64,000 nucleotides of DNA from Actinomycetota bacterium (GTDB lineage Bacteria > Actinomycetota > Acidimicrobiia > Spongiisociales > UBA11373), in the NCBI GenBank assembly GCA_020444505.1, contig JAHLKU010000001.1, positions 62,810 through 126,809 of the forward strand, read 5' to 3'. Positions 1 to 60,743 of the stretch are shown here, in pieces (position 1 is the first letter of the stretch; every line of letters starts with the position of its first letter). Below the pieces are notes generated by a model, which did not search any database, was not told the origin of the DNA, and worked only from the letters and a program-made list of their open reading frames with translations. Both the position numbers and the translations under genes were made by a program.

Positions 1-220
1 TACTCTGGCGGGCCGAGGCGATGAGGCCCGCCTGCAACCGCCCGCCTTGGGACGATGGCTTCTGTGACCCCCAGCGTTCACCGATGACCGTCCCATCACC
101 CCCGGAGCCGCCGTTCTCTGTGCCGCCGTGCGCGGCGGGGCCCGTCCTCGCCGCCCGCAGATCACCCGATCCACGCCACAGAGGCCCGTGCCCGGATGCT
201 GCCGTGCCGTGGAGGACACC

Positions 221-2511: not shown

Positions 2512-4068
2512 TCACGAGTGCAGGTCCCTGCGGGTCCAGGGCGGGAGCGCGGCCACCCCCAGCAGCACGACGCCGCCCACCAGGGCGGCCAGCAGGCTCC
2601 GCCATTGCCCGGCGCCGCCGGCCGGCAGCACCCACGCGGCCGCCCCCCAGGCGGCGAACCCGGCGGCGGCCGCCACCGGCAGGCCGCGGGCCGCCGATGC
2701 GGCGACGGGGCGGGCCCATTCCCACCCCATGCGCCCGTACCAGACCACCGCCAACCCGATGGTGTACACCAGGATCGACAGCGTGCTGGCGAGCGCCAGT
2801 CCGTTGACGCCCATCGCCTCCTGCAGCCCCCAGTAGATCGGGACGGCGGCCACGGTCGCCAGCGTGCCGATCACGACGGGAGCCCACATCTGCTCCCGGG
2901 CGTAGAACGACCTGGCGAGGATCTGCTGGACGCCCCACAGCGGCACGCCCAGGGCGAAGAAGACGACGGTGCCTGCGGTGGCCAGCGTGTCGGCGCCGCC
3001 GAACTCGCCGCGTTCGTACAGCACCCGCACCACCGGCACCGAGAGCGCCATCAGCCCGGCGGCGGCGACGAGGCTGAGCAGCACCACCGGCTTGAGGGCG
3101 CGCACGATGGCCGCCGACAGATCCTTCAGTCTGCCCTCGGCGGCGAGCCTGGCGAGGAACGGGTAGGTCGCCACCCCGGCGGCCTGGGCGATCACCCCGA
3201 CCGGGACCAGCATCGTCAGCCGCCCGAAGGTGAGCCACGACACCGCACCCTCGCCGACGAGCGAGCCGAAGCTCCTGCCCAGCTGCTCGTCGAGCACCAC
3301 GAGCGACTGGCCCAGCATCAGCGGGATGGCCAGTGCGAAGTAGCGCCGGAACGCCGGGTGCTTGCGGATCGAGCCCACCGGGAACCGCAGCCCCGCCCGC
3401 CACGCCCCCCACGCCTGCAGGGCGAAGATCCCGAGGACGGCGCCGGCCAGCGCCCCCCACGCGAAGCCGTCCGCACCCGGGTCGTCGCGCCCGACGGCGC
3501 CGAGCACGCCTCCCACGATGATCGCCACGTTGTAGACCAGCGGTCCCAGCGTGGGGATGACGAATCGCTCCCGGGCGTACTGCACGGCGGTCAGCAACTG
3601 CCCGAGGATGAAGAAGATCTGGGCCGGCAGGACGATGCGGGTGAGCCGGGTGGCGTTCGCCACCTGGGCGTCGGTGAAGCCGGGCTCGATGGCCCGCAGG
3701 ATCGGCTCGACGAACGGCATGGCCACGACCACCAGCGCGGTGATCCCGATGGCGAGCGGCCTGGCGATCGCCCAGAAGGCCCGCCAGGCGTCCTCCTCGT
3801 CGCCGGTGGCGAACCGGCGGGTGAGGATGGGGATGAGGGTGATCGCCATGTAGGCGCCGGCCAGCAGGTAGTTGAGGACGTCGGGGATGAGGAAGGCGAC
3901 GAAGTAGGTGTCGCCCGTGGCCCCGGCGCCGAGCAGCCCGGCGAAGACGATCTGGCGGACCAGGCCCAGCACCCGGGAGAGCAGCACCCCGCCCGCCACG
4001 ATGGCGGCGGCGATCCCCATGCGCCGGTAGAGGCTGCGCGCCGGGGGAGCGGGGGCGGGGTCGGTCAT
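2512..4068 (-). CDS. murJ: lipid II flippase MurJ/MviN
   Basis: 518 aa. The N-terminus ...SRVLGLVRQIVFAGLLGAGATGDTYFVAFLIPDVLNYLLAG... is typical of MurJ, and the protein is polytopic. TAAGTT (revcomp of 4075-4080) lies 6 nt upstream of the ATG. Confidence 0.9.
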   Translation of the reverse strand: MTDPAPAPPARSLYRRMGIAAAIVAGGVLLSRVLGLVRQIVFAGLLGAGATGDTYFVAFLIPDVLNYLLAGAYMAITLIPILTRRFATGDEEDAWRAFWAIARPLAIGITALVVVAMPFVEPILRAIEPGFTDAQVANATRLTRIVLPAQIFFILGQLLTAVQYARERFVIPTLGPLVYNVAIIVGGVLGAVGRDDPGADGFAWGALAGAVLGIFALQAWGAWRAGLRFPVGSIRKHPAFRRYFALAIPLMLGQSLVVLDEQLGRSFGSLVGEGAVSWLTFGRLTMLVPVGVIAQAAGVATYPFLARLAAEGRLKDLSAAIVRALKPVVLLSLVAAAGLMALSVPVVRVLYERGEFGGADTLATAGTVVFFALGVPLWGVQQILARSFYAREQMWAPVVIGTLATVAAVPIYWGLQEAMGVNGLALASTLSILVYTIGLAVVWYGRMGWEWARPVAASAARGLPVAAAAGFAAWGAAAWVLPAGGAGQWRSLLAALVGGVVLLGVAALPPWTRRDLHS

Positions 4069-4143
4069 CGGGGCAACTTAGCGCAGGGGGAGGCGGCCGC
4101 TTCGCCACCGGCGGACGGGACCGGGCACGGTACGATCCGCGCC

Positions 4144-4518
4144 ATGCACGGCGGACCGGATCGGCGGCACCTGATCCTCTGGGACGGCGGCTGAGGCCTG
4201 TGACGCCGCAGCGCCGCCTGGGTCAGGCGGAAGGACCAGTCTCATCGCTTCGAGGCCCTGCCCTACCAGGACGCCCCGTCGCCGCCGATGACGCCCGGCC
4301 TGGCCGAGGCATGCGCCCGGGCCGTCCACGTGGTCACGGCCGACGGCGAGGTGCTGCGGGGAGGGGCGGCGTCGCTGTTCGTGCTCGACGGGGTGGGCTA
4401 CCGCAGGACGGCCCGGGTGCTGTCGCTTCCGGTCTTCCGCGCGTTCGTGGACCTGGCGTACCGCATCGTCGCCCGCAACCGGCGATTCTTCGGGAGGTTC
4501 CTGTTCCGCCGGGAGTGA
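4144..4518 (+). CDS. DCC-family (DUF393) thiol-disulfide oxidoreductase. Both CxxC Cys positions are in-frame TGA (4192-4194 and 4201-4203). Candidate UxxU selenoprotein, alternatively a pseudogene.
   Basis: Read-through from ATG 4144 gives MHGGPDRRHLILWDGG*GL*RRSAAWVRRKDQSHRFEALPYQDAPSPPM..., in frame with tracked ORF 4288..4518. This fits the DCC signature (h-h-[FYW]-D-G-x-C-x-x-C ... D....F.F..LQ). TACGAT at 4131-4136 lies 7 nt upstream of ATG 4144. Confidence 0.55.
4214..4230 (+). promoter_or_regulatory. candidate bacterial SECIS-like hairpin (7-bp stem, apical G-G-U-C)
   Basis: CCGCCUG-GGU-CAGGCGG is a perfect inverted repeat, alternatively a 6-bp stem with a GGGUC loop. It starts 10 nt after the second TGA and 19 nt after the first. 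Confidence 0.4.
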
Positions 4519-4551
4519 GCCCCGCCGGGATCGCCGCCCCCCGGGACGAGT

Positions 4552-4581
4552 GAAGGGCCCCCGCCGGAGCGGGGGCCCTTC
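4552..4581. terminator. bidirectional intrinsic-terminator-like hairpin between convergent genes
   Basis: GAAGGGCCCCCGC-CGGA-GCGGGGGCCCTTC forms a perfect 13-bp GC-rich stem. It lies between the DCC gene stop (4518) and the BON-LysM gene stop (4597). Confidence 0.7.
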
Positions 4582-4596
4582 GCAGCGTTCGTTCGG

Positions 4597-5193
4597 TCAG
4601 GCGTCCAGTGCGGGGATCCGCAGCACCTGGCCGGGGTAGATGAGATCGGCGCTCTTCAGCATCGGCTTGTTGGCCTCGAAGATGGCCGGGTACTTCGACC
4701 CGTCGCCGTAGAACTCCTTGGCGATCTTCGAGAGCGTGTCGCCCTTCTTGACCTCGTAGAACTTCGACTGCGCCAACTTCGCGGCTTCCTGTGCCTTGCG
4801 GCGGCGCTCGCGCAGGTCCAGCATGGCCTGCTTGCGAGTCTCGGCCTCGTCCTTGGCATCGGCCCTGGCGCGGGCCTTGGCGATGGCCTCCTCGCGGGCC
4901 TTGGCCCACTCGGCGCGTTCGCCCTCGGTGGTGCCGGCGACGAAGCCGTCGGCCTCGACCTCGCCGACCCCCTCCGTGTTGCCCACGATGAGGACGGCCT
5001 TCTCGATCGTCGCGTCGTCGGCGGCGACACCGCTGATGGTGGCCTTCCCGCCTGCGAACTCGATCTCGAGGTCGTCGATGTCGAGACCGCTGTCCTTCAC
5101 CTTGGCGGCGAGGGCCTCGGCCATGGCCGTGTCGTCCGCCGAAGCGGCCGCAGCGACCTTCTCACCGATGGTCTCGAGAAACTTCCAACCCAC
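4597..5193 (-). CDS. BON + LysM domain protein (Kbp/YgaU-like)
   Basis: BON-like segment LEIEFAGGKATISGVAADDATIEKAVLIVGNTEGV, a charged coiled linker, and a C-terminal LysM domain YEVKKGDTLSKIAKEFYGDGSKYPAIFEANKPML...GQVLRIP. GTG at 5191-5193 is preceded by a perfect AGGAGG 5 nt upstream, so the tracked ATG 5253 is probably too long. Confidence 0.85.
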   Translation of the reverse strand: MGWKFLETIGEKVAAAASADDTAMAEALAAKVKDSGLDIDDLEIEFAGGKATISGVAADDATIEKAVLIVGNTEGVGEVEADGFVAGTTEGERAEWAKAREEAIAKARARADAKDEAETRKQAMLDLRERRRKAQEAAKLAQSKFYEVKKGDTLSKIAKEFYGDGSKYPAIFEANKPMLKSADLIYPGQVLRIPALDA

Positions 5194-5292
5194 GTTTCCT
5201 CCTGTCGATCGTGGCGGGGCAAGCGTAGCCACCCGCCTGTTCGTACGGGGCATCCGTTCCGGGGAGGCTTCCGCTGCGAGGGCGACCGCGGC

Positions 5293-10214: not shown

Positions 10215-10835
10215 GTGACGCCCCGCGCCCTGCCCACCGAAGAGGAGATCCGCGCCCTCGTGCGCAAGGTGGTGGCGTCGGTAGCCGCCGGTGCGCCGCC
10301 GGCGGAGGGCAGGGCCGCAGACGCTCCCGCCCCGGCGCCCGCCCCGCCCCCCGCTGCGGCGATGGGGACGATCGCCGTCGGCGCCGACCACGGCGGCTTC
10401 CGCCTCAAGGAGCGCCTGGCCTTCCGCCTCAAGGAGCAGGGCTGGGCGGTCGTGGACTGCGGCACCGACAGCACCGAGGCCGCCGACTACCCGGAGTTCG
10501 CCCGGGCCGTCGCCGAGCGCGTCGCCTCCGGCGAGGCCGACTGGGGCATCGTCGTGGACGGAGCCGGCATCGGGTCGTCGATGGCCGCCAACAAGGTGCC
10601 GGGGGTGCGGGCGGCGCTCTGCTACGACCTGTCGTCGGCGGCCAACAGCAGGGAGCACAACCATGCCAACGTGCTGACCCTCGGCGCAGGCCTGGTGGGG
10701 GAGGCCCTCGCCTGGCAGATCGTCCAGACCTGGCTGGGCACCCCGTGGGCCGAAGGGCGCCATGCCCGCCGGGTGGCGATGATCGACGACCTCGACCGGC
10801 GCTACCGTGACGGTTCCGCACGAGGACGGGAGTGA
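10215..10835 (+). CDS. RpiB/LacA/LacB-family sugar-phosphate isomerase with an N-terminal encapsulation-peptide-like extension (BMC cargo)
   Basis: Core IAVGADHGGF...GIVVDGAGIGSSMAANKVPGVRAAL...HNHANVLTLG matches RpiB. It is preceded by about 50 extra residues: the amphipathic helix EEEIRALVRKVVASV followed by an Ala/Pro linker. Confidence 0.85.
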   Translation: MTPRALPTEEEIRALVRKVVASVAAGAPPAEGRAADAPAPAPAPPPAAAMGTIAVGADHGGFRLKERLAFRLKEQGWAVVDCGTDSTEAADYPEFARAVAERVASGEADWGIVVDGAGIGSSMAANKVPGVRAALCYDLSSAANSREHNHANVLTLGAGLVGEALAWQIVQTWLGTPWAEGRHARRVAMIDDLDRRYRDGSARGRE

Positions 10836-11683
10836 TGGATCAGGACGCGATCGTCGAGGCGGTCACCCGCGAAGTGCTCGCGGCGCTGACCGGCGAGGCC
10901 TGGGACCACTACCTGGCGTGCATCGGCGACTGCGCCGCCCACTCCTCCGACCAGGTCCGCGACGTGGTCGCCGCCGGCGCCACCCGCATCTCGTTCAACG
11001 GGTCGGGCGCCGATGTGCCCACCGACCTGGCCGGGTACATCGACCACACCCTCCTCAAGGCCGATGCCTCCGCCAAGGACATCGACCGGATGTGCGATGA
11101 GGCCGTCACCTACAAGTTCGCATCGGTGTGCGTCAACCCGGCCTGGGTGCGCCGGGTGGCGGAGCACCTGCGCGGCAGCGACGTCATCGCCTGTTCCGTG
11201 GTGGGGTTCCCCCTCGGCGCCCACACCCCCGAGATCAAGGCCATGGAAGCGCGGCGCGCCCTGCGGGACGGCGCCAGGGAGATCGACATGGTGGTGAACA
11301 TCGGCGCCGTCAAGTCGGGCGACTGGGACACGGTCGAGCGCGACATCGCCGGGGTGGCCGACGCCTGCCGGGAGGCGGGTGCGGTGTGCAAGGTCATCAT
11401 CGAGGCGGCCATGCTGGACGACGACGAGAAGGTCGTCGTCAGCCGCCTCGCCCGCAAGGCCAAGGCGCACTACGTGAAGACGTCCACCGGGTTCGGGCCG
11501 GGCGGCGCCACGGTGTACGACGTGGCCCTGATGCGGGAGGCGGTCGGGCCCGACATGGGCGTGAAGGCGTCCGGCGGCATCAAGACCCGCAAGGACGCAC
11601 AGGACATGATCGCCGCCGGGGCCACCCGGATCGGGGCGTCGGCGGGCATCGAGATCGTCAGCGAAGCGGGAGGTACCGCGTGA
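10832..11683 (+). CDS. deoC: deoxyribose-phosphate aldolase (DERA) with an N-terminal extension (BMC cargo)
   Basis: IDHTLLK...[10 protein letters not shown]...GFPLGAH...EIDMVVNIG...CKVIIE...YVKTSTGF...GVKASGGI...RIGASAG. An N-terminal extension of about 65 aa begins with [19 protein letters not shown] 10832 (or ATG 10835) overlaps the previous stop. Confidence 0.9.
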
Positions 11684-12309
11684 GCAGCAACGTCGAACTG
11701 CGGGGCTATTCGTTCCTGGACAGCCTGCAGCCGCAGTACGCCGCCTACCTGGGCACGGTGGCGCGCGGGTTCCTGCCGCTGGCCGGCGAGGCCTCGCTGA
11801 TGGTGGAGATCTCCCCGGGCATCGAGATCAACCGCCTCACCGACGTGGCCCTGAAGAGCACCACGGTCAAGCCCGGCATGCAGATCGTCGAGCGCTACTT
11901 CGGCCTGCTCGAGGTGCACTCCCCGAGCCAGGCGGAGACCCGGGCGGCGGGGGCGGCGATCCTCGATGCGGTCGGCCTCTCCGAGGACGACCGCATCAGG
12001 CCCCGCATCGCCAGCAGCCAGATCATCCGGCGCATCGACGACCATCAGGCACAGCTGATCAACCGCATGCGCTACGGCCACATGCTCATCCCCGGCCAGA
12101 CCCTCTACGTGCTGGAGATGGAGCCGGCGTCCTACGCCGCGCTGGCGGCCAACGAGGCCGAGAAGGCCGCAGAGATCAACGTCCTCGAAGTCCGCTCCTT
12201 CGGCTCGCTGGGCCGGGTGTACCTCGGAGGTGAGGAGCGGGACATCGACGTGGGCTGGAGAGCGGCGGTCGCCGCGCTGGAGGGGCTCTCCGGCAGGGAG
12301 ATGAAGTAG
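11680..12309 (+). CDS. BMC shell protein, tandem-domain (BMC-T)
   Basis: 209 aa with two BMC-like repeats ([22 protein letters not shown]... and [29 protein letters not shown]...). GTG 11680 overlaps the deoC TGA and is preceded by GGGAGG. Confidence 0.75.
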
Positions 12310-12340
12310 GTTCCCCGAAAGGCAAGGAGACGAGGAGCAG

Positions 12341-12646
12341 ATGGCTGAAGCATTGGGCATGATCGAATGCCGAGGGTTCCCGGCGATGGTCGAGGCGGCC
12401 GACGCCATGGTGAAGGCCGCCAAGGTCGAGCTGGTGTCGATGGAGAAGACCGGCGGCGGGTACGTCACCGCCGTGGTCCGCGGTGACGTGGCCGCGGTGA
12501 AGGCAGCCGTCGACGCCGGCACCCGCGGTGCCGAGAAGGTCGGCGAGGTCATCGCGACCCACGTGATCGCGCGCCCGCACGTCAACATCGACCAGGTGCT
12601 GCCCCTCGGCAGGGCCGAGGAGGCCGCGGCCGAGCAGAGCGGGTAG
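12341..12646 (+). CDS. BMC shell protein, hexamer-forming (BMC-H, PduA/EutM/CcmK-like)
   Basis: [60 protein letters not shown] is a canonical Pfam00936-type sequence. Confidence 0.95.
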
Positions 12647-12652
12647 CCCGCC

Positions 12653-12940
12653 ATGCTGCTCGGCAGAGTCGCCGGCACGCTGGTGGCGAGCCGCAAGGAG
12701 GAGACCCTCGAGGGCCTCAAGTTCCTGGTGCTCAAGCAGGTCGACGTCGACGGCGGAGACACCGGCGGCTACGTGGTGGCCGCCGACGCCGTCGGCGCCG
12801 GCCTGGGCGAGGTGGTGCTCTACGCCACCGGTTCCAGCGCGAGGCAGACCCGCTACACGCACGAACGTCCCTGTGACGCGGTGGTGATGGCCATCGTGGA
12901 CACCTGGGAGGTCGGCGGCGAGGAGAAGTACCGGAAGTGA
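12653..12940 (+). CDS. BMC vertex protein (BMC-P, EutN/CcmL/PduN-like), copy 1
   Basis: [31 protein letters not shown]...[16 protein letters not shown]...AVVMAIVD. Confidence 0.9.
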
Positions 12941-12943
12941 GCG

Positions 12944-14398
12944 ATGGCTGAGCCGTTCTCCCCGGAGGAGGTCCACGAGATCATCGCCCGGGTCCGGCGC
13001 CGCCTCGGCGGCACCGACACCGAGGCCCCCGCCAAGCCGCGCGTCCCGGCGGAGATCCCCGAGACGCAGCTGGGGGAGGGCATCTACGCCACCATCGACG
13101 AGGCGGTTCGCGCCGCGGGTCGGGCGTTCGATGCGTACCAGGCGCTCGGCCCCGACGGCCGGGAGGCGGTGGTCGCCTCGATCCGCAGGACGATGCTGGA
13201 GCACGCCCCCCGGCTCGCCAAGATCGCGGTCGAGGAGACCGGCCTGGGCCGGGAGGAGGACAAGCTCCGCAAGATCCTCCTCGTCACCAACCGCACTCCC
13301 GGCCCCGAGGACCTCGACCCGATCATCGAGACGGGCGAGCACGGCATGATGCTCACCGAGATGGCCCCGATGGGGCTGGTGGCGGCGATCACCCCCACCA
13401 CCAACCCGGTGTCCACCATCGTCAACAACTCGATCGCCATCCTGTCGGGCGGCAACGCCGCCGTCCTCAACGTCCACCCCAACGCCAAGCGCGTGTCGGC
13501 GGAGAACGTCCGGCTCATCAACCGCGCCGTCATCGCAGGGGGAGGCCCCCCCGACCTGGTGACGGCCATCCCCGAGCCCACCATCGAGAGCGCCCAGGAA
13601 CTGATGCACCACCCGGCGATCCGGGTGCTGCTCGTCACCGGCGGCGGCGGGGTGGTGCGCGAGGCGCTGAAGACCGACAAACGGGCGGTGGCGGCGGGGC
13701 CGGGGAACCCTCCCGCCGTCGTCGACGAGACGGCCAACATCGAGGCGGCCGCCAGGGACATCGTGGCCGGGGCGTCGTTCGACAACAACATCATCTGCAT
13801 CGACGAGAAGACCGTCATCGCGGTCCGCGGCATCGCCGACGAGTTGATCCGCTCCATGGGGCGGCACGGCGCCCGGGTGCTCAAGGAGCACGAGTTGAAG
13901 AAGGTCGAGCGGGTGATCTTCTCGTCGATGGGCCCGCCGTCGAAGCCGGGCATCATCAACCCGGCGTGGATCGGCAAGGACGCCGCCGTGATCGCCCAGG
14001 CCGCCGGGGTCGAGGTGGACGGCGACCCCCGGGTGCTGCTGGCGGAGGTGCCGGCCGAGCACAACCTGGTGTGGACCGAGCAGATGATGCCGGTCCTCCC
14101 CCTGGTGCGGGTGCCGGATGTGGACGCCGCCATCGACCTGGCGGTGGAGAGCGAGCACCGCTTCCGCCACACCGCTTCGATCCACAGCACCAACGTGCAG
14201 ACGATCACCCGCATGGCCCGCACCATCAACGTGAGCATCTTCATCGCCAACGGTCCCAACTACGCCGGGCTGGGCGAGGGCGGCGAAGGCTTCACATCGT
14301 TCTCCATCGCCAGCCCCACCGGAGACGGCCTCACCCGGCCGCTCACCTTCACCCGGGAGCGGCGGATCGCCGTCGTCGGGGCCCTGAGGATCGTCTGA
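12944..14398 (+). CDS. CoA-acylating aldehyde dehydrogenase (PduP/EutE family) with an N-terminal encapsulation-peptide-like helix
   Basis: [15 protein letters not shown], the catalytic-Cys context [12 protein letters not shown], and a C-terminal [10 protein letters not shown]. The N-terminus [15 protein letters not shown] is followed by a Pro-rich linker. Confidence 0.9.
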
Positions 14399-14399
14399 G

Positions 14400-15005
14400 G
14401 TGGCCCGCCACCCCGCCATCGCCCTCCTGGAGTTCGGGTCGGTCACCGCCGGGATCGTCGCCGGCGACGCCATGGTGAAGCGGGCACCGGTGGCGCTCCA
14501 CAGCGGCACCGTCCAGCCCGGCCACTACCTGGTGCTGATCGCCGGTGAGGTCGGCGACGTCGAGGAGGCCGTGGACGCAGGCACCACGGCGTCCGGCGAC
14601 GTGCTGCTCGACCTGGTGCTGCTCTCCGACGTGCACCCCGACGTGGTGGCGGCGCTGCGCGGCGCCAGGCTGCCGGGGCCGGCGGAGGCGCTCGGCATCA
14701 TCGAGACCCAGACGGTGGCCTCCATCCTGGAGGCGGCCGACGCCGGGGTGAAGGGCGCCGCAGCCGATCTGCTGGAGGTGCACCTGGCCGACGGCCTCGG
14801 CGGGCGCGGCTACCTGCTGTTCGGGGGCACGGTGTCCGACGTGGAGGCGGCGGTGGACATCGGTTCGGCACGGGCCCACGAGGGGACGCTGGTGCGCCGC
14901 GCCGTCATCTCGCGACTGCACGACGAGATGCGCGCCGACCTCGACGCCCACCCCCGGTTCGGTCCGTCGGTCGGCAGGGGAGGGGGCGGCGATGCGGCTG
15001 GCTGA
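14400..15005 (+). CDS. BMC shell protein, tandem-domain (BMC-T, PduT-like fusion of two BMC domains)
   Basis: Two repeats: [25 protein letters not shown]... and [30 protein letters not shown].... GTG start lies 1 nt after the aldehyde dehydrogenase stop. Confidence 0.85.
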
Positions 15006-15952: not shown

Positions 15953-16336
15953 TCAGCCGCCCGGAGCCTCCCGCGGCCCCGCGCCGCGGTACACGTGGAC
16001 GGTCACCGGCTGCGTGGTGATGAGCCCGTCGCCGACCATCTCGTCGAGCACCGGGAGGATGGCCGCCACCTTGTCGGCACGCGAGACGCACTCGATGACG
16101 ATGGGGAGGTCCTCGGAGAGCCGCAGCACCGACGAGGTGTGCAGACGGCTGGACCGGCCGAACCCCTCGATGCCCTTCAGCACCGTGGCGCCCGACAGGT
16201 TGCTGGCCCGCAGCGTCTCGACGATGGCGTGGTGGAGCGGCCGCCCCTCGTGGCGGTCGTCCTCGCCGACGAAGATCCGCAGCAGCACGCCCTCCTCAGG
16301 GGCGCCTGCGGGGGAGGGACGGGGGTCGGGTTCCAT
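15953..16336 (-). CDS. DUF190 (PII-like) protein associated with CrcB
   Basis: LLRIFVGEDDRHEGRPLHHAIVETLRASNLSGATVLKGIEGFG...LPIVIECV. It is the last gene of the riboswitch-crcB-crcB operon. Confidence 0.8.
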   Translation of the reverse strand: MEPDPRPSPAGAPEEGVLLRIFVGEDDRHEGRPLHHAIVETLRASNLSGATVLKGIEGFGRSSRLHTSSVLRLSEDLPIVIECVSRADKVAAILPVLDEMVGDGLITTQPVTVHVYRGAGPREAPGG

Positions 16337-16357: not shown

Positions 16358-16708
16358 TCAGTGTGCCAGGGCGTACCCGAGGGCGGCGAGGGCGATGCCG
16401 GCCGCCGGCATCCCGGCCAGGTTGAGTGCGGCCCGCAGCCACTCCCCCGACCGGGCCATCGCAAGGGTCTCGGCGCTCCAGGTGGAGAAGGTGGTGAACC
16501 CGGCGAGGAGGCCGACCAGCGCGGCGTTGACGGCCGTGCCTGGCTCCGTGGCGCCCAGGGCCACCCCGGCGGCGAGGCTGCCCGCCAGGTTGACGGCCAT
16601 CGTGCCGGTGGGGAAGTGCCCGCGGCCCGCCGCCTGGGCGAGGCCGGCCGCCCAGTAGCGGCCCGCCGCCCCGATGCTTCCGGCCACGATCGCCACCAGC
16701 GCCGTCAT
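16358..16708 (-). CDS. crcB: fluoride ion channel CrcB/FluC, subunit 2
   Basis: 116 aa with 4 TM helices and GFTTFSTWS. ATG 16706-16708 overlaps the upstream crcB stop. Confidence 0.9.
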   Translation of the reverse strand: MTALVAIVAGSIGAAGRYWAAGLAQAAGRGHFPTGTMAVNLAGSLAAGVALGATEPGTAVNAALVGLLAGFTTFSTWSAETLAMARSGEWLRAALNLAGMPAAGIALAALGYALAH

Positions 16709-17106
16709 GCCCCGGCCCCCACCCGGTGGCCGGCTCCCGCTGCGGCCACGCCGGCCACGGCCGACGCCACGGCGTAGGCGGCCGCCACCGCAGCCCTCCC
16801 CGCCTCCACCAGCGTCACCGTCTCCACGCTCAGCGCCGAGAAGGTGGTGAGCGACCCCAGCACGCCGATGGCCCAGAAGTCGAGCGACCACCACGGGGAG
16901 CCCGACCGGGCGTGGCGCGCCAGGAACCAGCCGATGGCGGCGGCTCCGGTCAGGTTGACCGCCAGCGACGACAGCGGCCAACCGCCCGGCTCCCAGCCGA
17001 GGGCGGCTGCGGCGCCGACGCGCGCCGCAGAGCCGGCGGCTCCTCCGGCGAGCACGACGAGCAGACGCTGCATGGGTGGTCGGCCGCCCTGAGCGGGTCG
17101 CGGCAC
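16705..17106 (-). CDS. crcB: fluoride ion channel CrcB/FluC, subunit 1
   Basis: GSLTTFSALS motif and 4 TM helices. GTG 17104-17106 follows AGGAGG. An alternative ATG lies at 17071-17073. The tracked start 17133 lies inside the riboswitch and is rejected. Confidence 0.85.
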   Translation of the reverse strand: MPRPAQGGRPPMQRLLVVLAGGAAGSAARVGAAAALGWEPGGWPLSSLAVNLTGAAAIGWFLARHARSGSPWWSLDFWAIGVLGSLTTFSALSVETVTLVEAGRAAVAAAYAVASAVAGVAAAGAGHRVGAGA

Positions 17107-17117
17107 GGCTCCTCCTC

Positions 17118-17172
17118 GTTCCGTAGGAGCCATCAGCCGGCGCGGCGGTTGCGGCGAGCCCCATCGCCGTGA
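17118..17172 (-). promoter_or_regulatory. fluoride riboswitch (crcB RNA motif)
   Basis: The reverse complement of 17121-17168 reads GGCGAUGGGGCUCGCCGCAACCGCCGCGCCGGCUGAUGGCUCCUACGG. It has the conserved GGCGAUG, GCC, AAC, CUGAUG and CUCCUAC blocks in the right order and lies directly upstream of crcB. Confidence 0.85.
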
Positions 17173-17300
17173 GGCGCCCGCACCTGCCCGCGAGGGGTGG
17201 GGCGGTGCCGGGCCGGGGACCGGCCGGGGCGCGCTCGGGCCGGATCGTACTGCGACGGGGCCGGCCGACCGCCATCCCGGGCGGCGCTAACCTCGCCGTG

Positions 17301-24829: not shown

Positions 24830-25741
24830 TCAGGAGATCGGCTTCTCGTAGCCGTCGAGGACGTGCCAGGGCTCGAAGCCGGCGCTGCGGTACAGGGCGC
24901 CGGAGGCCGCGTTCGACTCGAAGTTGGCCACGATGGCGTACTCCATGCCTGCGGCGGCCATGTGGTGGGCGGCGTACTGCACCACGGCCCTGCCCAGGCC
25001 GCGGCGGCGGTGATCGGGATGGGTGCCGACGGCCTCGAGCAGCCCGGTCCGGTTGATCGGGTCGTACCAGGTGACGGCGAAGGCGCCGAACCCGCCGCCG
25101 GGCGCCACCGCCACCAGTTCCCGCGCCGGGTCGTAGCCGGGCGACTCCATGACCCGGCGGTACAGCGCCTCGGTCCACCCCGCGCCGGGGAAGGCGGCGC
25201 CGTGCACCGCCGCCACCGCCCCGGCCTCTTCGACACCGGTGACGGCGCGGATCGTGTAGCCGTCGGGGATCTCGGGCCCGGGCACGTCGGAGATCCGGGC
25301 GCGGTTGATCACGTACGGCGGGTCGCCGTCGGGCGCCCAGCCGAGGTCGGTGATGATCTCGATGCGGGCCGTGTCGCACCGGAAGGCATCGCCGGCCATG
25401 ACGGCCGATGCCACACCGTGGCGCCGCATCAACTCGGCGGTGCGGGCGTCGGCGTACTCGAGCACCTCCCGCTCGAACGCCCCGCCCCGCAGGTCGTGGC
25501 GCACCTGCGCGTCGTAGGAGCGATGCCGCGGCCCTACCAGCACCCAGGCCGCGACGCCGTCGCCGTCCTCCCAGACGGTCATCACCTCTGCGGGGTCGAA
25601 GTGCTTGTTGCCGTTGTAGAGGCGGTGGGGGATGTCGCCGGGGTGCACGTACCCGCAGCCGCCGGCGGCGGCACTGGAGACCGCGGTGAAGGCCTGCAGC
25701 AGTTCGAGGTCGGCTGCTCCCTCGTACGGTCGGCGTCGCAT
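24830..25741 (-). CDS. GNAT-family N-acetyltransferase (two-lobe, mycothiol-synthase-like architecture)
   Basis: ATG 25739-25741 follows GGGAGGG. The C-terminal lobe has HPDHRRRGLGRAVVQYAAHHMAAAG. The upstream part of the tracked ORF is an artefact. Confidence 0.75.
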   Translation of the reverse strand: MRRRPYEGAADLELLQAFTAVSSAAAGGCGYVHPGDIPHRLYNGNKHFDPAEVMTVWEDGDGVAAWVLVGPRHRSYDAQVRHDLRGGAFEREVLEYADARTAELMRRHGVASAVMAGDAFRCDTARIEIITDLGWAPDGDPPYVINRARISDVPGPEIPDGYTIRAVTGVEEAGAVAAVHGAAFPGAGWTEALYRRVMESPGYDPARELVAVAPGGGFGAFAVTWYDPINRTGLLEAVGTHPDHRRRGLGRAVVQYAAHHMAAAGMEYAIVANFESNAASGALYRSAGFEPWHVLDGYEKPIS

Positions 25742-25859
25742 CGGCCCTCCCGGCCGCACGGTGCGGCCGGGGCCGACCCTACGCGCCCCGGCGAGCACGG
25801 GAATGTCAGGCCCGCCTGACGGGTTGAGACGGCCAGTACGCCACCGGAGGTCGATCCCC

Positions 25860-26573
25860 GTGTCCCGCGCCCGCATCCTCGTGATCGCCGGCCTCGTCGC
25901 GCTGCTGCTGGCGGCCGGCGCGGTGTGGTGGTTCGTGTTCCGCGACACCTCGCCGCCCGCCCCGACGCTGGAGGGCGCCGTCGCCGAGCGGACCTCCACC
26001 ACGGAGGGCTCGGCGACCACTCCGCAGACCGACGGGGGCATCGAAGGGGAGTGGGTGCTGGCCGACGACGGCACCTCCTACGTCGGCTACCGGGTGCGGG
26101 AGGAACTGGCCTCCATCGGGGCGAAGACCGCCGTGGGCCGGACGCCGCTGGTGGAGGCGGCGCTGGTGGTCGAGGGGGGTGCGGTGACCACCGTGCAGGT
26201 GGACGCCGACCTCACCGGGCTGCAGAGCGACGACGACCGCCGCGACGGCGCCATCCGCCGCCAGGCCCTGGAGACCGCCACGTTCCCCGACGCCGCCTTC
26301 ACCCTGACGGCACCGATCACCCTGCCCGCCGGCGCCGCCGACGGCGAGCCGATCGAGGTGTCCGGCACCGGCGACCTGACCCTGCACGGCGTCACCCGCA
26401 CCGTCGAGGTGCCGCTGCAGGCGCAACTGGTGGACGGCCGGATCGTCGTGGTCGGCTCGGTGGAGATCGCCTTCGCGGACTACGACATCGACAAGCCCAC
26501 GTCGTTCGCCGTCCTCAGCGTCGAGGACGTCGGCGTCATGGAGTTGCTGCTCGTGTTCGAGCCGTCGGCATGA
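25860..26573 (+). CDS. YceI-like domain protein with an N-terminal membrane anchor
   Basis: GTG 25860 follows GGAGG. A TM helix ILVIAGLVALLLAAGAVWWFV is followed by a YceI-type core with SDDDRRDGAIR and GDLTLHGVTR. Confidence 0.75.
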   Translation: MSRARILVIAGLVALLLAAGAVWWFVFRDTSPPAPTLEGAVAERTSTTEGSATTPQTDGGIEGEWVLADDGTSYVGYRVREELASIGAKTAVGRTPLVEAALVVEGGAVTTVQVDADLTGLQSDDDRRDGAIRRQALETATFPDAAFTLTAPITLPAGAADGEPIEVSGTGDLTLHGVTRTVEVPLQAQLVDGRIVVVGSVEIAFADYDIDKPTSFAVLSVEDVGVMELLLVFEPSA

Positions 26574-43634: not shown

Positions 43635-46600
43635 CTAGAACACCTCGTTGGTGGCCTTGATCCACGCCTTCATGTAGAGCGCGACGGCCCGGAAGTAGTC
43701 GCCTTCGGCAGCAGCCTTGTCGCCGCACCTGATCCACTTCTCGGCCCTCGACTGGTCCCACGCCGAGGCGTTGGACTCCTCGAGTGCGATGGTGGCGAGC
43801 AGCCGATCGGCTTCGAGCAGCTTCTCGATCACGGCGGTCACCTCGGCGTCGATCGCCGGCGAGGTCCAGAGCAGGCGTCGGACCGCCCGCCGCTCGGCCG
43901 CGAACACGCGCTTGCCGGTGTCCTTGTCGAGCGTCCGCTCCGACGTCCACAGCTCGGGCGCCAGGCTCGCCTCGATGTCGGCGATGGCCCTGGTGATCCG
44001 CCGGTCGTCGACCACACCCCCGAGCCCGAGGATGTCGGTGAGATCGGCCTGGGCGTCTCGCTTCAGATCGGCCGGCGTGGTCCGCAGGTCGAGGCCGACC
44101 AGGACCGGGTCGTGGTCGCTGGAGCGGAACTCGTCGTCGGAGTAGTTGGCCGCCGGGTTGTAGTCGTTGTAGTCGAGCGCCGGGGGCTCCACCGAGTTGA
44201 TGTGCCACGCGGCGGCACCGGTGACGGCACCGGATGCCTCGTCGTTGGCCAGCCCGTAGTCGAGCGTCCCGTGCTCGCCGTCGTACACGTAGGAGTAGCC
44301 GCCCTCGGCGAACGAGTTCCCGACGTACGCCTCGATGAGGTCGGTCCACCCCAGCCCCTCCAGGGCCGTGATCGGGTCCTCGTTGGCGTACGAGTTCAGG
44401 TCGCCGAGGATGAGCGCCGCGTCGGCGCCGGTGCCGGTCGGGTCGTCGTCCATCCACTGCCCCAGCACCTGGGCCGCTGCGGTCCTGGTGAGGTTGCAGT
44501 TCCCGGCATACCCGCCGGTGTCCGGGTCCTCGGCGTAGGGTGCCACGCCGTAGGCCGGGTCGCCGGGGTTGGCCGTGTCGTCGCAATCGCTGCCCTTCGA
44601 CTTCAGGTGGTTGATGGCCACCGTCACCGAGCCGCCGGTGGCGGTCTCCTGGAACGTCTGGGCCAGCGCCGGGCGGTTCTTCTCGTCGAGGAACGCCGGG
44701 CTCACCGTCGAGTCGAGCAGCGCGAACGCGCCGTCGGGGGTGGTGGTGAGCGTGTCGTAGATGAAGCCCACCGCGATCTCGTCGGAGCCGATGACCCCGG
44801 TGTCGATGTAGTCGTACACCCGGGTGGCTCCGGCGGCGGCGTTGAGCCGCCCGACGAGATCGGCGATGGCGGTGCCGTTGTTCTCGATCTCGATCAACCC
44901 GACCACGTCGGCGTCGAGTTCGACGATGGCCGACACGATCTTGTCGGCCTGGCGCTCGAACTCGTCCGCCGTCTCCGCTCCCCGGCTGCCCAGGGTGGTG
45001 AAGTAGTTGAGCACGTTGAACGAGGCGACGGTGAAGCCGCTCCCCACGTCCGGCAGCGCCGGGCGGGTGGTGAAACCGGTGAAGGTGATCGCGTCCGCCG
45101 GGTGCAGCGGATCGGCCACGTTCACCGGCTGGATCTCGTACTGGTCGAACGCGTAGTGGAGCACGCCGGCGAGCCCGGTGATGGCGTCACCGCTGCGCAG
45201 CGTCCCGCCGTTCTGCAGGTACGGGGTGGTCGCCGGGTTCCAGGTCTCGTTGGGGTACGACTCGTTCTCTTCCTCGCCGTCGTCGAGGACGATCCGGCTG
45301 GCCGTGTTCAGGGCCCGCACCTCGTCGGCGGCGGCCGAGTCGGCGGCCGCCACCTGGTTCGGCTGGTCCTGCGGCCCGATGGCCGACAGCACCACCTCGC
45401 CGAACGAGCCGAGGCGGTAGGTCTCGGTGACGTGGAGGGTCTGGGCGATCGCCACCCGCATGCCCTCCATCGACTCCCAATCGACCTCCTCGTCGGCCGG
45501 GTCGGTGGGCAGCACCGGGGCGGCGGCGGTCGGCAGTGCGTTGCCGGAGGAGCAGACGGCGATGGCGTCCACGGAGCCGACCTCGGTGAGGTCGTAGTAC
45601 TCCGACACCGTGCCCTGCACCCGCACCAGGTCGCCCACCGACACGTCGGTGCCGCCCGGGGCGTAGACGAAGACGCCCTCGGACGTGGCGGCGTCGGCGT
45701 CGGCGTCGGCGTCCTCCTCCTGCAGCATGAACCCGTCGAGGGGCTCGTCGTCGGGCCCGCCGTCGAAGGCCTGGAAGTCGCCGACGACGATGCCCTCGAT
45801 CTCGACGACGTCGCCGACCAGTGGGCTGGCATCACCGTCGCCCTGCACGTCGTGGATGGCCGTGGCGGGGTCGCCACAGGTGATCTCCACCGCGAGTTCG
45901 GTGTTCAGGTCGCCGGGGCTGGCGAGCCCCGGGCCCACCCAGGTGCCGTCGTACAACTGCAGCGACTCGTCGGGCTGTGTGGACGAGCCCTCGGCGACGC
46001 CGACGTCGGTGCTGGTGACGCCGGAGGCTGCGCCGTCGGTGGCTTCGAACGTGCCCTCGTAGGACAGGAACTCGATCAGTTCGTTCGAGTCGTTGACGAG
46101 CGCGAACCCGTCCGGGGCGCCGTTCTGGATCCCGGACCTGAGGAACGACAGTGCGCCCATGCCGCCGGACTCGTCGTCGATGGTGCCGGACAGGGCGATG
46201 GTGTCGTACACGGCGCCGCCGCTGCCGTTGTACAGCAGGACGCTCCACCCGGTCAGGTCGGTGCCGGCGTCGCCGGTCACCTCGACGAACTCGTTGGCGT
46301 CGGTGCCGTCGTTGTCGTAGTGGATCTCGCTCAGGTAGACGGTGGGCGGTTCTTCGACGGTGGCGGTCTCGTCGATGAGCACGTTCTGGAAGGCGAAGCC
46401 CTCTTCCCCGCCGTCGGTGGCCGCCGTGAACGTCAGCGTGAGTGCGCTGCCGGTGCCGTCGATGTTGGTCTTGAACGTCGTGAGTACGTTGGTGACGATC
46501 GTGCCGTTCATCGACAGCGGGTCGTCGAGGGTGGTTTCGGTGCCGCTCGCCAGCGTGTAGGTGAGCGAGCCTGCCTCGTCCACCGAGGACTCGAACGCGG

Positions 46601-47765
46601 TGAACTCGGACCCGCCGTCGAACTGATAGGTGAACGTGAAGGAGTCGTCGGCTTCGAAGTCGCCCATCGCCCCCATGTCGATGGACAGCTCCAGGTTGCT
46701 GCCGGCTCCCGAGGTGTCGAACACCCAGGTGGCGACGACCGGTCCGCTGTTGTCGTTGTTCTCTGTGTCGGACACCCCGAAGAACTCGTCGTGGTTGTTG
46801 TCGTCGACGATCCCGGCGGTGTCGCCCGGGTAGGAGACGAGGCTGTCGTCGAGCAGCGCGTAGGGGATGTCGCCGTCGACGTCGCGGTCCAGCTTCTCGA
46901 ACTTGTCGTACGCGGAGCTGGGGAATCCCAACTCCCACGCGTTGGTGTACGACGTGAGGTTCTGGCTGGCGGAGCCCACCATGTCGTACGCCGACACGAA
47001 CGGCGGCGTCGCATCGGAGACGATGATGTTCTGGAAGGCGAACGCCTCGTCCCCGCCGTTGGTGGTCGCCGTCAGCGTGAGCGTCAACTCGTCACCGCCC
47101 CCGGTCAGCGCGGCCGTCCGGGTGGTGAGGACGTTGGTGAGGTTCTCGCCGTCCACCTGCATCGGGTCGTCGAGGGTGGTCTCGGTGCCGCTCGCCAGCG
47201 TGTAGGTGAGCGAGCCTGCCTCGTCCACCGAGGACTCGAACGCGGTGAACTCGGACCCGCCGTCGAACTGATAGGTGAACGTGAAGGAGTCGTCGGCTTC
47301 GAAGTCGCCCATCGCCCCCATGTCGATGGACAGCTCCAGGTTGCTGCCGGCTCCCGAGGTGTCGAACACCCAGGTGGCGACGACCGGTCCGCTGTTGTCG
47401 TTGTTCTCTGTGTCGGACACCCCGAAGAACTCGTCGTGGTTGTTGTCGTCGACGATCCCGGCGGTGTCGCCCGGGTAGGAGACGAGGCTGTCGTCGAGCA
47501 GCGCGTAGGGGATGTCGCCGTCGACGTCGCGGTCCAGCTTCTCGAACTTGTCGTACGCGGAGCTGGGGAATCCCAACTCCCACGCGTTGGTGTACGACGT
47601 CAGGTTGCTCGACGCCGAGCCCACCATGTCGTAGGCCACGGCGTCGATGCCGTTGGCCAGGGCCGGCGCCGCACCGGCGAAGGGGAGCAAGGCGGCGACC
47701 ATCACCCCCACCACTCCCATGCTGATGGCCCTGCGCCGGGCGCTGCGCGTCGAAACGTCTCCCAC
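43635..47765 (-). CDS. large secreted ExeM/NucH-type extracellular nuclease (duplicated N-terminal domains + lamin-tail domain + endonuclease/exonuclease/phosphatase domain)
   Basis: GTG start follows AGGAGGA, then a signal peptide ...AAPALANG. Two roughly 215-aa repeats come first. The LTD is SEIHYDNDGTDANEFVEVTG...WSVLLYNG. The EEP domain is VASFNVLNYF...VVGLIEIENN...SSDHDPVLVGL. Confidence 0.85.
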   Translation of the reverse strand: MGDVSTRSARRRAISMGVVGVMVAALLPFAGAAPALANGIDAVAYDMVGSASSNLTSYTNAWELGFPSSAYDKFEKLDRDVDGDIPYALLDDSLVSYPGDTAGIVDDNNHDEFFGVSDTENNDNSGPVVATWVFDTSGAGSNLELSIDMGAMGDFEADDSFTFTYQFDGGSEFTAFESSVDEAGSLTYTLASGTETTLDDPMQVDGENLTNVLTTRTAALTGGGDELTLTLTATTNGGDEAFAFQNIIVSDATPPFVSAYDMVGSASQNLTSYTNAWELGFPSSAYDKFEKLDRDVDGDIPYALLDDSLVSYPGDTAGIVDDNNHDEFFGVSDTENNDNSGPVVATWVFDTSGAGSNLELSIDMGAMGDFEADDSFTFTYQFDGGSEFTAFESSVDEAGSLTYTLASGTETTLDDPLSMNGTIVTNVLTTFKTNIDGTGSALTLTFTAATDGGEEGFAFQNVLIDETATVEEPPTVYLSEIHYDNDGTDANEFVEVTGDAGTDLTGWSVLLYNGSGGAVYDTIALSGTIDDESGGMGALSFLRSGIQNGAPDGFALVNDSNELIEFLSYEGTFEATDGAASGVTSTDVGVAEGSSTQPDESLQLYDGTWVGPGLASPGDLNTELAVEITCGDPATAIHDVQGDGDASPLVGDVVEIEGIVVGDFQAFDGGPDDEPLDGFMLQEEDADADADAATSEGVFVYAPGGTDVSVGDLVRVQGTVSEYYDLTEVGSVDAIAVCSSGNALPTAAAPVLPTDPADEEVDWESMEGMRVAIAQTLHVTETYRLGSFGEVVLSAIGPQDQPNQVAAADSAAADEVRALNTASRIVLDDGEEENESYPNETWNPATTPYLQNGGTLRSGDAITGLAGVLHYAFDQYEIQPVNVADPLHPADAITFTGFTTRPALPDVGSGFTVASFNVLNYFTTLGSRGAETADEFERQADKIVSAIVELDADVVGLIEIENNGTAIADLVGRLNAAAGATRVYDYIDTGVIGSDEIAVGFIYDTLTTTPDGAFALLDSTVSPAFLDEKNRPALAQTFQETATGGSVTVAINHLKSKGSDCDDTANPGDPAYGVAPYAEDPDTGGYAGNCNLTRTAAAQVLGQWMDDDPTGTGADAALILGDLNSYANEDPITALEGLGWTDLIEAYVGNSFAEGGYSYVYDGEHGTLDYGLANDEASGAVTGAAAWHINSVEPPALDYNDYNPAANYSDDEFRSSDHDPVLVGLDLRTTPADLKRDAQADLTDILGLGGVVDDRRITRAIADIEASLAPELWTSERTLDKDTGKRVFAAERRAVRRLLWTSPAIDAEVTAVIEKLLEADRLLATIALEESNASAWDQSRAEKWIRCGDKAAAEGDYFRAVALYMKAWIKATNEVF
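46518..47600 (-). repeat. intragenic tandem duplication with a 645-bp period. The core 46518-46955 is almost identical to 47163-47600.
   Basis: Tracked shadow ORFs 46630..46833 and 47275..47478 translate identically. Direct comparison found a single T/C difference (46536 vs 47181) in the stretches I compared by eye. Confidence 0.9.
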
Positions 47766-60698: not shown

Positions 60699-60743
60699 GG
60701 GAGGGCAGGGTACTGCGGGCCCCGTCGTCCGTAGGATGCCCGG

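Follow-up and report, generated by a model that had tools for sequence, protein, structure and literature searches.

Locus and reading frame

A stretch of 64,000 nucleotides from an Actinomycetota genome (assembly GCA_020444505.1, contig JAHLKU010000001.1, positions 62,810 to 126,809 of the forward strand; hereafter referred to as the window) carries a gene of the DCC1-like family in which the two cysteines of the redox motif are both replaced by in-frame TGA codons. The features of this gene are as follows:

4144..4518, plus strand: full coding sequence of a DCC1-like (PF04134) protein, 124 codons plus stop, two in-frame UGAs included
4192..4194, plus strand: UGA-1 (codon 17, hereafter UGA-17), predicted selenocysteine (Sec) 17, at the first Cys column of CxxC
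4201..4203, plus strand: UGA-2 (codon 20, hereafter UGA-20), predicted Sec20, at the second Cys column of CxxC
4214..4230, plus strand: hairpin of the Sec insertion sequence (SECIS) type within the coding sequence, with stem 4214-4220 (CCGCCUG)/4224-4230 (CAGGCGG) and loop GGU 4221-4223
4516..4518, plus strand: true stop codon TGA, with no SECIS nearby

Translated on the plus strand, the frame 4144-4518 reads MHGGPDRRHLILWDGG-(TGA)-GL-(TGA)-RRSAAWVRRKDQSHRFEALPYQDAPSPPMTPGL...FRRE-(stop), the part past the second TGA beginning with RRSAAW. The segment 4192-4203 (TGA-GGC-CTG-TGA) contains two candidate Sec codons separated by two sense codons at the CxxC site, and the 124-codon frame has no interruption besides these two TGAs. 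An initial annotation of the window had placed both TGAs exactly on the CxxC cysteine columns of an otherwise intact frame, and had regarded the 76-amino acid open reading frame (ORF) 4288..4518 as only the C-terminal part of the gene. The former is borne out by the translation and by alignment with Cys-containing relatives, and the latter by a full-length PF04134 match of the protein read from 4144. The product of the gene callers (P0016; 4288-4518, 76 amino acids) comprises the C-terminal part only and begins at Met49. The part of the frame upstream of Met49 has a GC content at third codon positions (GC3) of 0.88 and the downstream part one of 0.95, and the whole frame is therefore taken to be coding.

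TGA is the stop codon of 30 of the 42 well-supported ORFs in the window, which therefore uses the standard genetic code, in agreement with the initial annotation; reassignment of the code was rejected on this ground. In addition, the same truncated gene of 76 amino acids was called in four Logan assemblies from separate runs (SRR14069905, SRR14069906, SRR14069923, and SRR14069912). Three Logan assemblies were read at the base level and contain the identical TGA...TGA arrangement; since these assemblies are independent, the two codons are not an assembly artifact, and assembly error was likewise rejected.

Protein family and predicted fold

With U replaced by C, the read-through protein scores 63.6 bits with PF04134 (DCC1-like; cut-off 27.8 bits, E = 5e-17) over profile positions 1-109 of 113, and this comparison, proposed as a check in the initial annotation, puts both TGAs on Cys columns of the family. 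The register h-h-[WFY]-D-G-x-C-x-x-C is found in 74 Cys-form relatives, and the two TGAs fall on its Cys columns. With regard to the DxxCxxC motif, D14 is present and UGA occupies the two Cys positions, in register with alignment A3, where D10, C13, and C16 are invariant, and with the 74 Cys forms. No NCBIfam model matches the protein, and a sequence search of the PDB returned no solved structure.

Structural information was obtained from the AlphaFold model of a Cys homolog (P0009, 67% identical), which has a predicted local distance difference test (pLDDT) value of 84 and a predicted template modeling (pTM) score of 0.74. The model shows a beta-alpha-beta-alpha-beta-beta-alpha core with additional C-terminal helices, that is, a thioredoxin-like topology, in which CxxC lies at the N-terminus of helix 1, the canonical active-site position of the thioredoxin fold. 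Foldseek matches of this model in the PDB are weak (best E = 8e-3) but all are thioredoxin-fold redox proteins, headed by mycoredoxin-1 (Mrx1; probability 0.98) and followed by protein disulfide isomerase domains, SelW, glutaredoxins, and thioredoxins. A third cysteine, Cys57 (4312-4314, in the motif A-C-x-x-A-V-H), is at least 90% invariant in both Sec and Cys forms and could be a resolving or structural residue.

The window protein resembles the DCC1-like family (PF04134, formerly DUF393; YuxK; Arabidopsis DCC1) in its full-length Pfam match, its DxxCxxC register, and its thioredoxin-like fold, and Cys-form DCC relatives are 50-70% identical to it. Unlike this family, however, the gene has UGA for both cysteines of the motif and an intragenic SECIS-type hairpin. 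For Arabidopsis DCC1, reduction of a partner protein, subunit CA2 of complex I, has been reported (PMC7598583), and this plant protein is the sole functional characterization of the DCC family found in the literature. The window protein presumably acts as a thiol/selenol-disulfide oxidoreductase in a manner similar to the characterized DCC1.

Distribution of TGA and Cys codons among relatives

A homology search yielded 139 proteins, including full-length CxxC forms that are 55-70% identical. Among the 120 matches listed, approximately one-third were N-terminally truncated gene calls (fragments of approximately 76-116 amino acids), which begin at the Met of 'MTP...', at 'PYQ...', or directly past the CxxC position. 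At the DNA level, 48 genome loci and 62 metagenome loci (110 in all, designated below by L numbers) were compared, together with the window's own copies, and the codons at the two columns were distributed as follows:

Cys/Cys: 74 loci
TGA/TGA: 34 loci (27 distinct sequences, including the window's copies)
TGA/TGC: 2 loci, plus one locus read by hand (L004)
TGC/TGA: 2 loci

None of the tabulated loci has TAA, TAG, or any other interruption. Five further truncated calls were checked singly; L122, L123, L124, and L127 proved to be UxxU forms and L126 a UxxC form; in all, TGA was found on a Cys column in each of the seven truncated calls inspected at the DNA level. Tabulating the codons across relatives, as had been suggested at the outset, thus shows TGA recurring at both columns, with approximately 35 distinct relatives from at least six phyla carrying it at one or both (Sec forms). 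The statement that this is not a decaying gene also holds in these relatives, which show neither extra stops nor frameshifts.

The Sec forms belong to Chloroflexota, Armatimonadota, Planctomycetota, Myxococcota, Acidobacteriota, and Actinomycetota (the window). Named genomes include Chthonomonadaceae, Anaerolineae, Anaerolineaceae, Caldilineaceae, and other Chloroflexota, Planctomycetota, Myxococcales, Polyangium, a 'delta proteobacterium', and Thermoanaerobaculia. Sec forms are also carried on large contigs, namely JAJVIM010000004.1, CAVSGM010000003.1, CBDIDV010000002.1, CAYQRE010000025.1, and ERZ25039549 contig_7436. Pairwise identity among the Sec forms ranges from 38 to 100%, with a median of 56% (C-terminal part). 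Their sources are mostly metagenomes of soil, peat, and sediment. The selenoprotein catalogs consulted, where they specify an environment, are based on marine samples, as in the Global Ocean Sampling (GOS) analysis.

Before and between the TGAs, codon changes are synonymous and leave the amino acids intact: D is encoded by GAC (27) or GAT (5), one G by GGC (25), GGT (4), or GGG (3), another G by GGC (17), GGT (6), GGA (3), or GGG (1), and F by TTC (18) or TTT (6). This pattern indicates that purifying selection acts on a translated region upstream of Met49, and therefore excludes both decay and a product restricted to the C-terminal part. UxxU is the commonest Sec form, with 27 distinct sequences compared to 5-6 single-Sec forms (3-4 UxxC and 2 CxxU), and Sec and Cys forms appear to have interconverted repeatedly within the clade.

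A SECIS-type hairpin confined to TGA forms

The hairpin at 4214-4230 encodes A-W-V-R-R within the peptide SAAWVRRKD, and its loop lies 26 nt downstream of UGA-17 and 17 nt downstream of UGA-20. Folded alone, it has a minimum free energy (MFE) of -12.5 kcal/mol (z = -3.05), whereas the stretch 4185-4270, folded as a single sequence, showed no signal (z = 0.19), so that the element becomes evident only by comparison. The initial annotation had mentioned a hairpin downstream of the TGAs but had not located it; the comparison both assigns it to 4214-4230 and finds it conserved in TGA forms only.

A stem of at least 6 bp at the fixed register with a GGU loop is present in 29 of the 32 distinct TGA forms and in none of the 67 distinct Cys forms (Fisher p = 6e-22), the mean number of consecutive pairs at this register being 6.8 and 0.55, respectively; in those TGA forms that have the hairpin, the stem spans 6-10 bp. 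When RNAalifold was run unprompted on 30 distinct Sec-form sequences, it returned exactly the same 7-bp stem, with compensatory double changes in five of the seven pairs. Moreover, 90.4% of the cells are paired in the stem as specified, compared to at most 48% in slid registers, and its covariation score was reached by none of 500 shuffles.

The same constraint is visible in codon usage. In Sec forms, A-W-V-R-R is encoded almost always by GCC-UGG-GUC-AGG-CGG. The Val codon is GTC in 28 of 28 Sec forms but in only 10 of 33 Cys forms (p ~2e-9), and the Arg codon is AGG in 22 of 25 Sec forms and in 0 of 18 Cys forms (p ~2e-9), even though AGG accounts for only approximately 10% of the Arg codons in the window. 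The codon choice at this site is dictated by the RNA. Two Cys forms with a similar peptide, L014 (AAWVRR) and L015 (AAWVKQ), have not kept the stem, and conservation of the amino acids therefore does not explain the hairpin.

In the published model of bacterial SECIS (bSECIS) elements, the loop has 3-9 nt with G in its two initial positions, the stem has 4-16 bp, the distance from UGA to the loop is 16-37 nt, and the MFE is -7.5 kcal/mol or lower (PMC13188914, Fig. 2 legend). The hairpin at 4214-4230 passes all four of these limits with respect to UGA-17 (26 nt) as well as UGA-20 (17 nt). Our measurement in E. coli fdhF gave 18 nt from the UGA at codon 140 to the GGUC loop, and UGA-20, with 17 nt, therefore stands in an fdhF-like geometry. 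A search of Rfam at gathering thresholds returned no element inside the gene.

Single-Sec relatives provide further insight into the spacing. Two UxxC forms (L043 and L126) retain the standard hairpin and have their sole UGA in the first column, which argues that a first-column UGA is served from a distance of 26 nt. Two CxxU forms (L036 and L054) also retain it. L004, a UxxC form, lacks the standard hairpin and has a different stem of 10 bp with a GGU-initiated loop 17 nt after its only UGA. This locus (ENA ERZ25039549 contig_7436, 1.94 Mb; locus positions approximately 2950-3010) has the motif WDGG-(TGA)-GFCC with an extra Cys past the motif, and its hairpin has moved 9 nt towards the UGA, restoring the 17-nt spacing; it looks like either an independent solution or a remodeling after loss of the second Sec.

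Proposed decoding and alternative explanations

Considering the recurrence of TGA at the two columns, the covarying hairpin found only in TGA forms, and the evidence for purifying selection, we regard it as highly probable that this locus is a real two-Sec (UxxU) selenoprotein gene of thioredoxin-like fold, both of whose UGAs would be decoded by SelB with the help of a single SECIS. The initial proposal of a DCC-family UxxU selenoprotein is thereby supported.

Under this reading, a leaderless mRNA would begin at or near AUG 4144, and the ribosome would reach UGA-17 and, three codons on, UGA-20. The hairpin would act as a bacterial SECIS that recruits SelB.GTP.Sec-tRNA(Sec), a role suggested because of its geometry, its covariation, and its exclusive association with TGA forms. 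Sec would then be inserted at both UGAs instead of termination by release factor 2 (RF2), from the fdhF-like distance of 17 nt at UGA-20 and from 26 nt, within the range of natural bacterial SECIS elements (16-37 nt), at UGA-17; the third TGA (4516), without a SECIS, would terminate translation. The predicted product is a DCC-family protein of approximately 13.5 kDa in which both redox cysteines of DxxCxxC are Sec. Its UxxU center could form a diselenide, as the geometry of CxxC at the N-terminus of helix 1 suggests.

Several observations weigh against this interpretation. Neither selA, selB, selD, nor the tRNA-Sec gene was found in the window, in the approximately 10 kb beyond its start, or in related flanks (530 kb in all), and no other selenoprotein candidate was found within the 64 kb. 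UGA-SECIS spacing is reportedly tight in E. coli (fdhF), and one hairpin would have to serve two UGAs that are 9 nt apart, with a second SelB complex delivered within three codons. The MFE fold of longer stretches of the window partly competes with the hairpin, and the hairpin of L109 has a mismatch. In one UxxC form (L078; Ga0114950_10033020, locus positions approximately 1501-1600), no convincing hairpin was found, the best having -6.6 kcal/mol at 13 nt from the UGA; this locus may be defective or a true pseudogene, or it may carry a non-canonical element. Finally, the neighbor-joining (NJ) tree in which Sec and Cys forms interleave is based on approximately 90 residues and is poorly resolved.

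The search for the Sec machinery was carried out by tblastn with E. coli SelA, SelB, and SelD and by ARAGORN on the window and all related loci, the 530 kb being made up of the 64-kb window, approximately 10 kb of its 146-kb contig, and the related flanks. Absence of sel genes from a sample of this size is expected by chance. Two weak SelA matches were rejected; both are in Cys-form loci and look like generic similarity. No tRNA of any kind was detected in the 64-kb window, and no sel genes were detected in the overlapping Logan contigs (up to 26.5 kb). A window-wide scan for in-frame TGAs in coding frames returned one further case at 12938, which was discarded as an ordinary stop followed by the start of the next gene. 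According to the literature, some Actinobacteria, Chloroflexi, Acidobacteria, and Deltaproteobacteria decode Sec (PMC1794560 Table 2, PMC5029168 Table 2, PMC13449736), and the trait is therefore plausible for these lineages, though not proven for this genome.

Among the alternatives, the one that survives best, although we give it only a small chance, is that the UGAs are recoded but not as Sec, either through read-through by a near-cognate tRNA (Trp/Cys) independent of SECIS and SelB, through Cys carried on tRNA-Sec, or through a lineage-specific sense UGA. It draws on the fact that the identity of the inserted residue as Sec rests on inference and that the machinery is unproven for this genome. 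However, TGA terminates 30 of the 42 genes of the window, the DCC gene itself included, and the Sec forms occur in phyla of differing background, with the standard code in all flanks examined. In addition, the UGAs align with Cys only, the Sec/Cys-pair signature that defines selenoproteins (PMC13188914), and the hairpin, with its GGU loop, fits the SelB-type bSECIS model and the fdhF geometry.

A second alternative, which appears a shade less probable still, is that only one UGA, most plausibly UGA-20, is efficiently decoded as Sec while UGA-17 mostly terminates, so that the gene would be largely silent or would serve as a selenium-responsive attenuator. UGA-17 is separated from the loop by 26 nt, which exceeds the fdhF spacing by 8-9 nt, and the two SelB deliveries from one hairpin within three codons that full decoding would require are a matter of inference only. 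On the other hand, UxxU is by far the commonest Sec form, and its persistence would be difficult to explain if translation mostly ended at the first UGA; a spacing of 26 nt lies inside the natural bSECIS range of 16-37 nt; L043 and L126, in which the sole UGA occupies the first column, have the standard hairpin at a distance of 26 nt; and other bacterial UxxU families exist.

Decay of a CxxC DCC gene by two nonsense mutations, with at most the 76-amino acid fragment from Met49 (4288) being made, is the least probable explanation and is effectively already refuted: it accords with the annotation of the 76-amino acid ORF alone by gene callers and with a Sec machinery that has not been demonstrated for this genome, but TGA occupies the same two columns in approximately 35 divergent sequences from at least six phyla, without frameshifts and never as TAA or TAG, the amino acids around the TGAs are conserved despite synonymous change, the covarying hairpin accompanies TGA forms only, and the N-terminal GC3 (0.88) is typical of coding sequence.

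Relationship to known selenoproteins

If both UGAs of the DCC gene are indeed read as Sec, the protein would join a small group of bacterial UxxU selenoproteins. The initial annotation suggested that no bacterial UxxU pair was known, which is incorrect, as Prx-like, metal-binding/MerA-like, and FmdB-family selenoproteins with this motif have been cataloged (PMC13188914, PMC9312934, PMC2398784). They comprise a Prx-like thiol:disulfide oxidoreductase family (PF00578, UxxC/UxxU), a metal-binding or putative mercuric reductase protein (NF041115, UxxU), and a putative regulatory protein of the FmdB family (TIGR02605, UxxU). Similar to what is predicted for the DCC gene, these families have a Sec pair with two residues in between in place of CxxC and two UGAs 9 nt apart (PMC13188914 Table 1, PMC9312934, PMC2398784). 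They differ from it in family and fold context, and whereas UxxU is predominant in the DCC clade, the Prx-like family is listed with UxxC alongside UxxU.

A diselenide bond has been reported for the animal selenoprotein SelL (Shchedrina et al. 2007, as cited in PMC2398784), which likewise has UxxU on a thioredoxin-like fold; unlike the DCC protein, SelL is eukaryotic and Prx-like and depends on a SECIS in the 3'-untranslated region, and the two share no homology beyond the fold class. With regard to the RNA element, the DCC hairpin resembles that of E. coli fdhF in being an intragenic stem-loop just 3' of a UGA, with a loop starting with GGU and a spacing of 17 nt compared to 18 nt. In contrast to fdhF, one DCC hairpin is placed for two UGAs (17 and 26 nt), and its binding by SelB is a prediction. 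The fdhF SECIS stem has a bulged U, whereas the DCC stem is a perfect GC-rich helix of 7 bp without a bulge.

The initial annotation also suggested that no bacterial DCC-family selenoprotein was known, and here it agrees with the literature searched and with reviews of selenoproteins. DCC, DUF393, PF04134, and YuxK have no entry among the 119 prokaryotic selenoprotein families and subfamilies of a 2026 review, a 2022 selenoprotein review has no entry for DCC or DUF393, and our literature search found no paper that pairs any name of the DCC family with selenocysteine or selenoprotein. Neither the mode of recoding nor the UxxU motif is novel, but the DCC family is new to both and probably unreported. 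What is unusual is the predominance of UxxU rather than UxxC and the placing of one very short conserved hairpin for both UGAs. We lean slightly toward the broader view that this would be the first recognized selenoprotein form of DCC/DUF393 and the first bacterial family in which UxxU is dominant, with one 7-bp SECIS driving two UGAs. By a similarly narrow balance, such a family may be distributed widely among bacteria of soil and freshwater, spanning at least six phyla and occurring in an Acidimicrobiia-like actinomycete.

Such a family would have several consequences. Sec-form DCC genes are systematically misannotated, being truncated by the gene callers behind NCBI, ENA, and JGI, and a curated model would fix many records. 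Sec/Cys pairs are a recognized pointer to catalytic redox residues, and their occurrence in this family speaks for the bacterial DCC/YuxK proteins, which are poorly understood, being true oxidoreductases. The redox couple of a UxxU center would differ from that of CxxC, and such a center, if real, would mark CxxC of DCC proteins as the catalytic redox center. Two UGAs 9 nt apart with one short hairpin also constitute a compact natural test of SECIS spacing tolerance and SelB turnover, in which the natural UxxC, CxxU, and shifted-hairpin variants are built-in controls; if the proposal is correct, this would be a natural system for studying the reloading of SelB on one SECIS over a span of three codons.

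Transcription signals and neighboring genes

The features surrounding the DCC gene are the following:

2512-4068, minus strand: murJ, divergent, upstream of the DCC gene
4131..4136, plus strand: TACGAT, a -10-like TAnnnT box 7 nt upstream of ATG 4144, putative promoter element
4550..4583, no strand assigned: perfect GC-rich hairpin of 15 bp between the convergent DCC and BON/LysM genes (MFE -35.2 kcal/mol, z = -6.3)
4597-5253, minus strand: BON/LysM gene, convergent, downstream of the DCC gene

A TAnnnT box is found 5-9 nt before the candidate start of 11 of the 42 ORFs in the window, compared to approximately 0.4 expected from background frequency. The arrangement at the DCC gene would fit leaderless transcription from ATG 4144, and the earlier suggestion of a leaderless start upstream of the TGAs gains support from this excess. 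A generic sigma-70 scan found no promoter at this gene, and generic promoter and terminator scans of 3950-4700 called nothing. The consensus terminator scan misses the hairpin at 4550-4583 because it has no U-tract (T run); this hairpin is probably a bidirectional terminator without a U-tract.

No neighbors conserved across the Sec-form loci were found, hence there is no operon-based clue to function, and the DCC gene therefore appears to be free-standing. A nickel superoxide dismutase gene (Sod_Ni; locus L118, 14241-15126) lies approximately 3-4 kb beyond the window start and is adjoined in L118 by a gene for an S26-type peptidase that presumably matures the dismutase; the two add to the redox-defense genes near the DCC gene and fit an actinobacterial origin. 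By its GatB homologs, the organism belongs to uncultured Actinomycetota, the best named match ('Actinomycetota bacterium') being 85% identical and Acidimicrobiia following as the next named group at approximately 71%. At another UxxU locus (L124, GC 74%), a gene with a rhodanese domain (612-1460) precedes the co-oriented DCC gene by approximately 550 nt; it has no counterpart at other loci and may be a coincidence.

Other features of the window

Two matches to the fluoride riboswitch (RF01734) were detected in the window. One (17117-17177, minus strand, 51.9 bits) is upstream of ORFs at approximately 16358-17133 and of a DUF190/COG1993 gene (15953-16336), and the other (8-71, plus strand), with 34.5 bits against a gathering score of 34, is upstream of a Band_7/SPFH gene (128-1306).

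A bacterial microcompartment locus extends over approximately 10215-15005 on the plus strand and contains RpiB-like and DeoC aldolase genes, a gene for a CsoS1D-like shell protein, and genes for BMC-H (12341-12646), EutN/CcmL (12653-12940), an aldehyde dehydrogenase (12944-14398), and a tandem-BMC protein (14400-15005). Its content looks like that of a sugar-phosphate-utilization type. In addition, long ORFs of high GC3 overlap on opposite strands at three places, namely 24830-26074 (minus) with 25632-26573 (plus), 43635-47765 (minus) with 46867-47205 (plus), and 57939-61376 (minus) with 60744-61727 (plus); these pairs are probably shadow ORFs typical of a genome with 73% GC.

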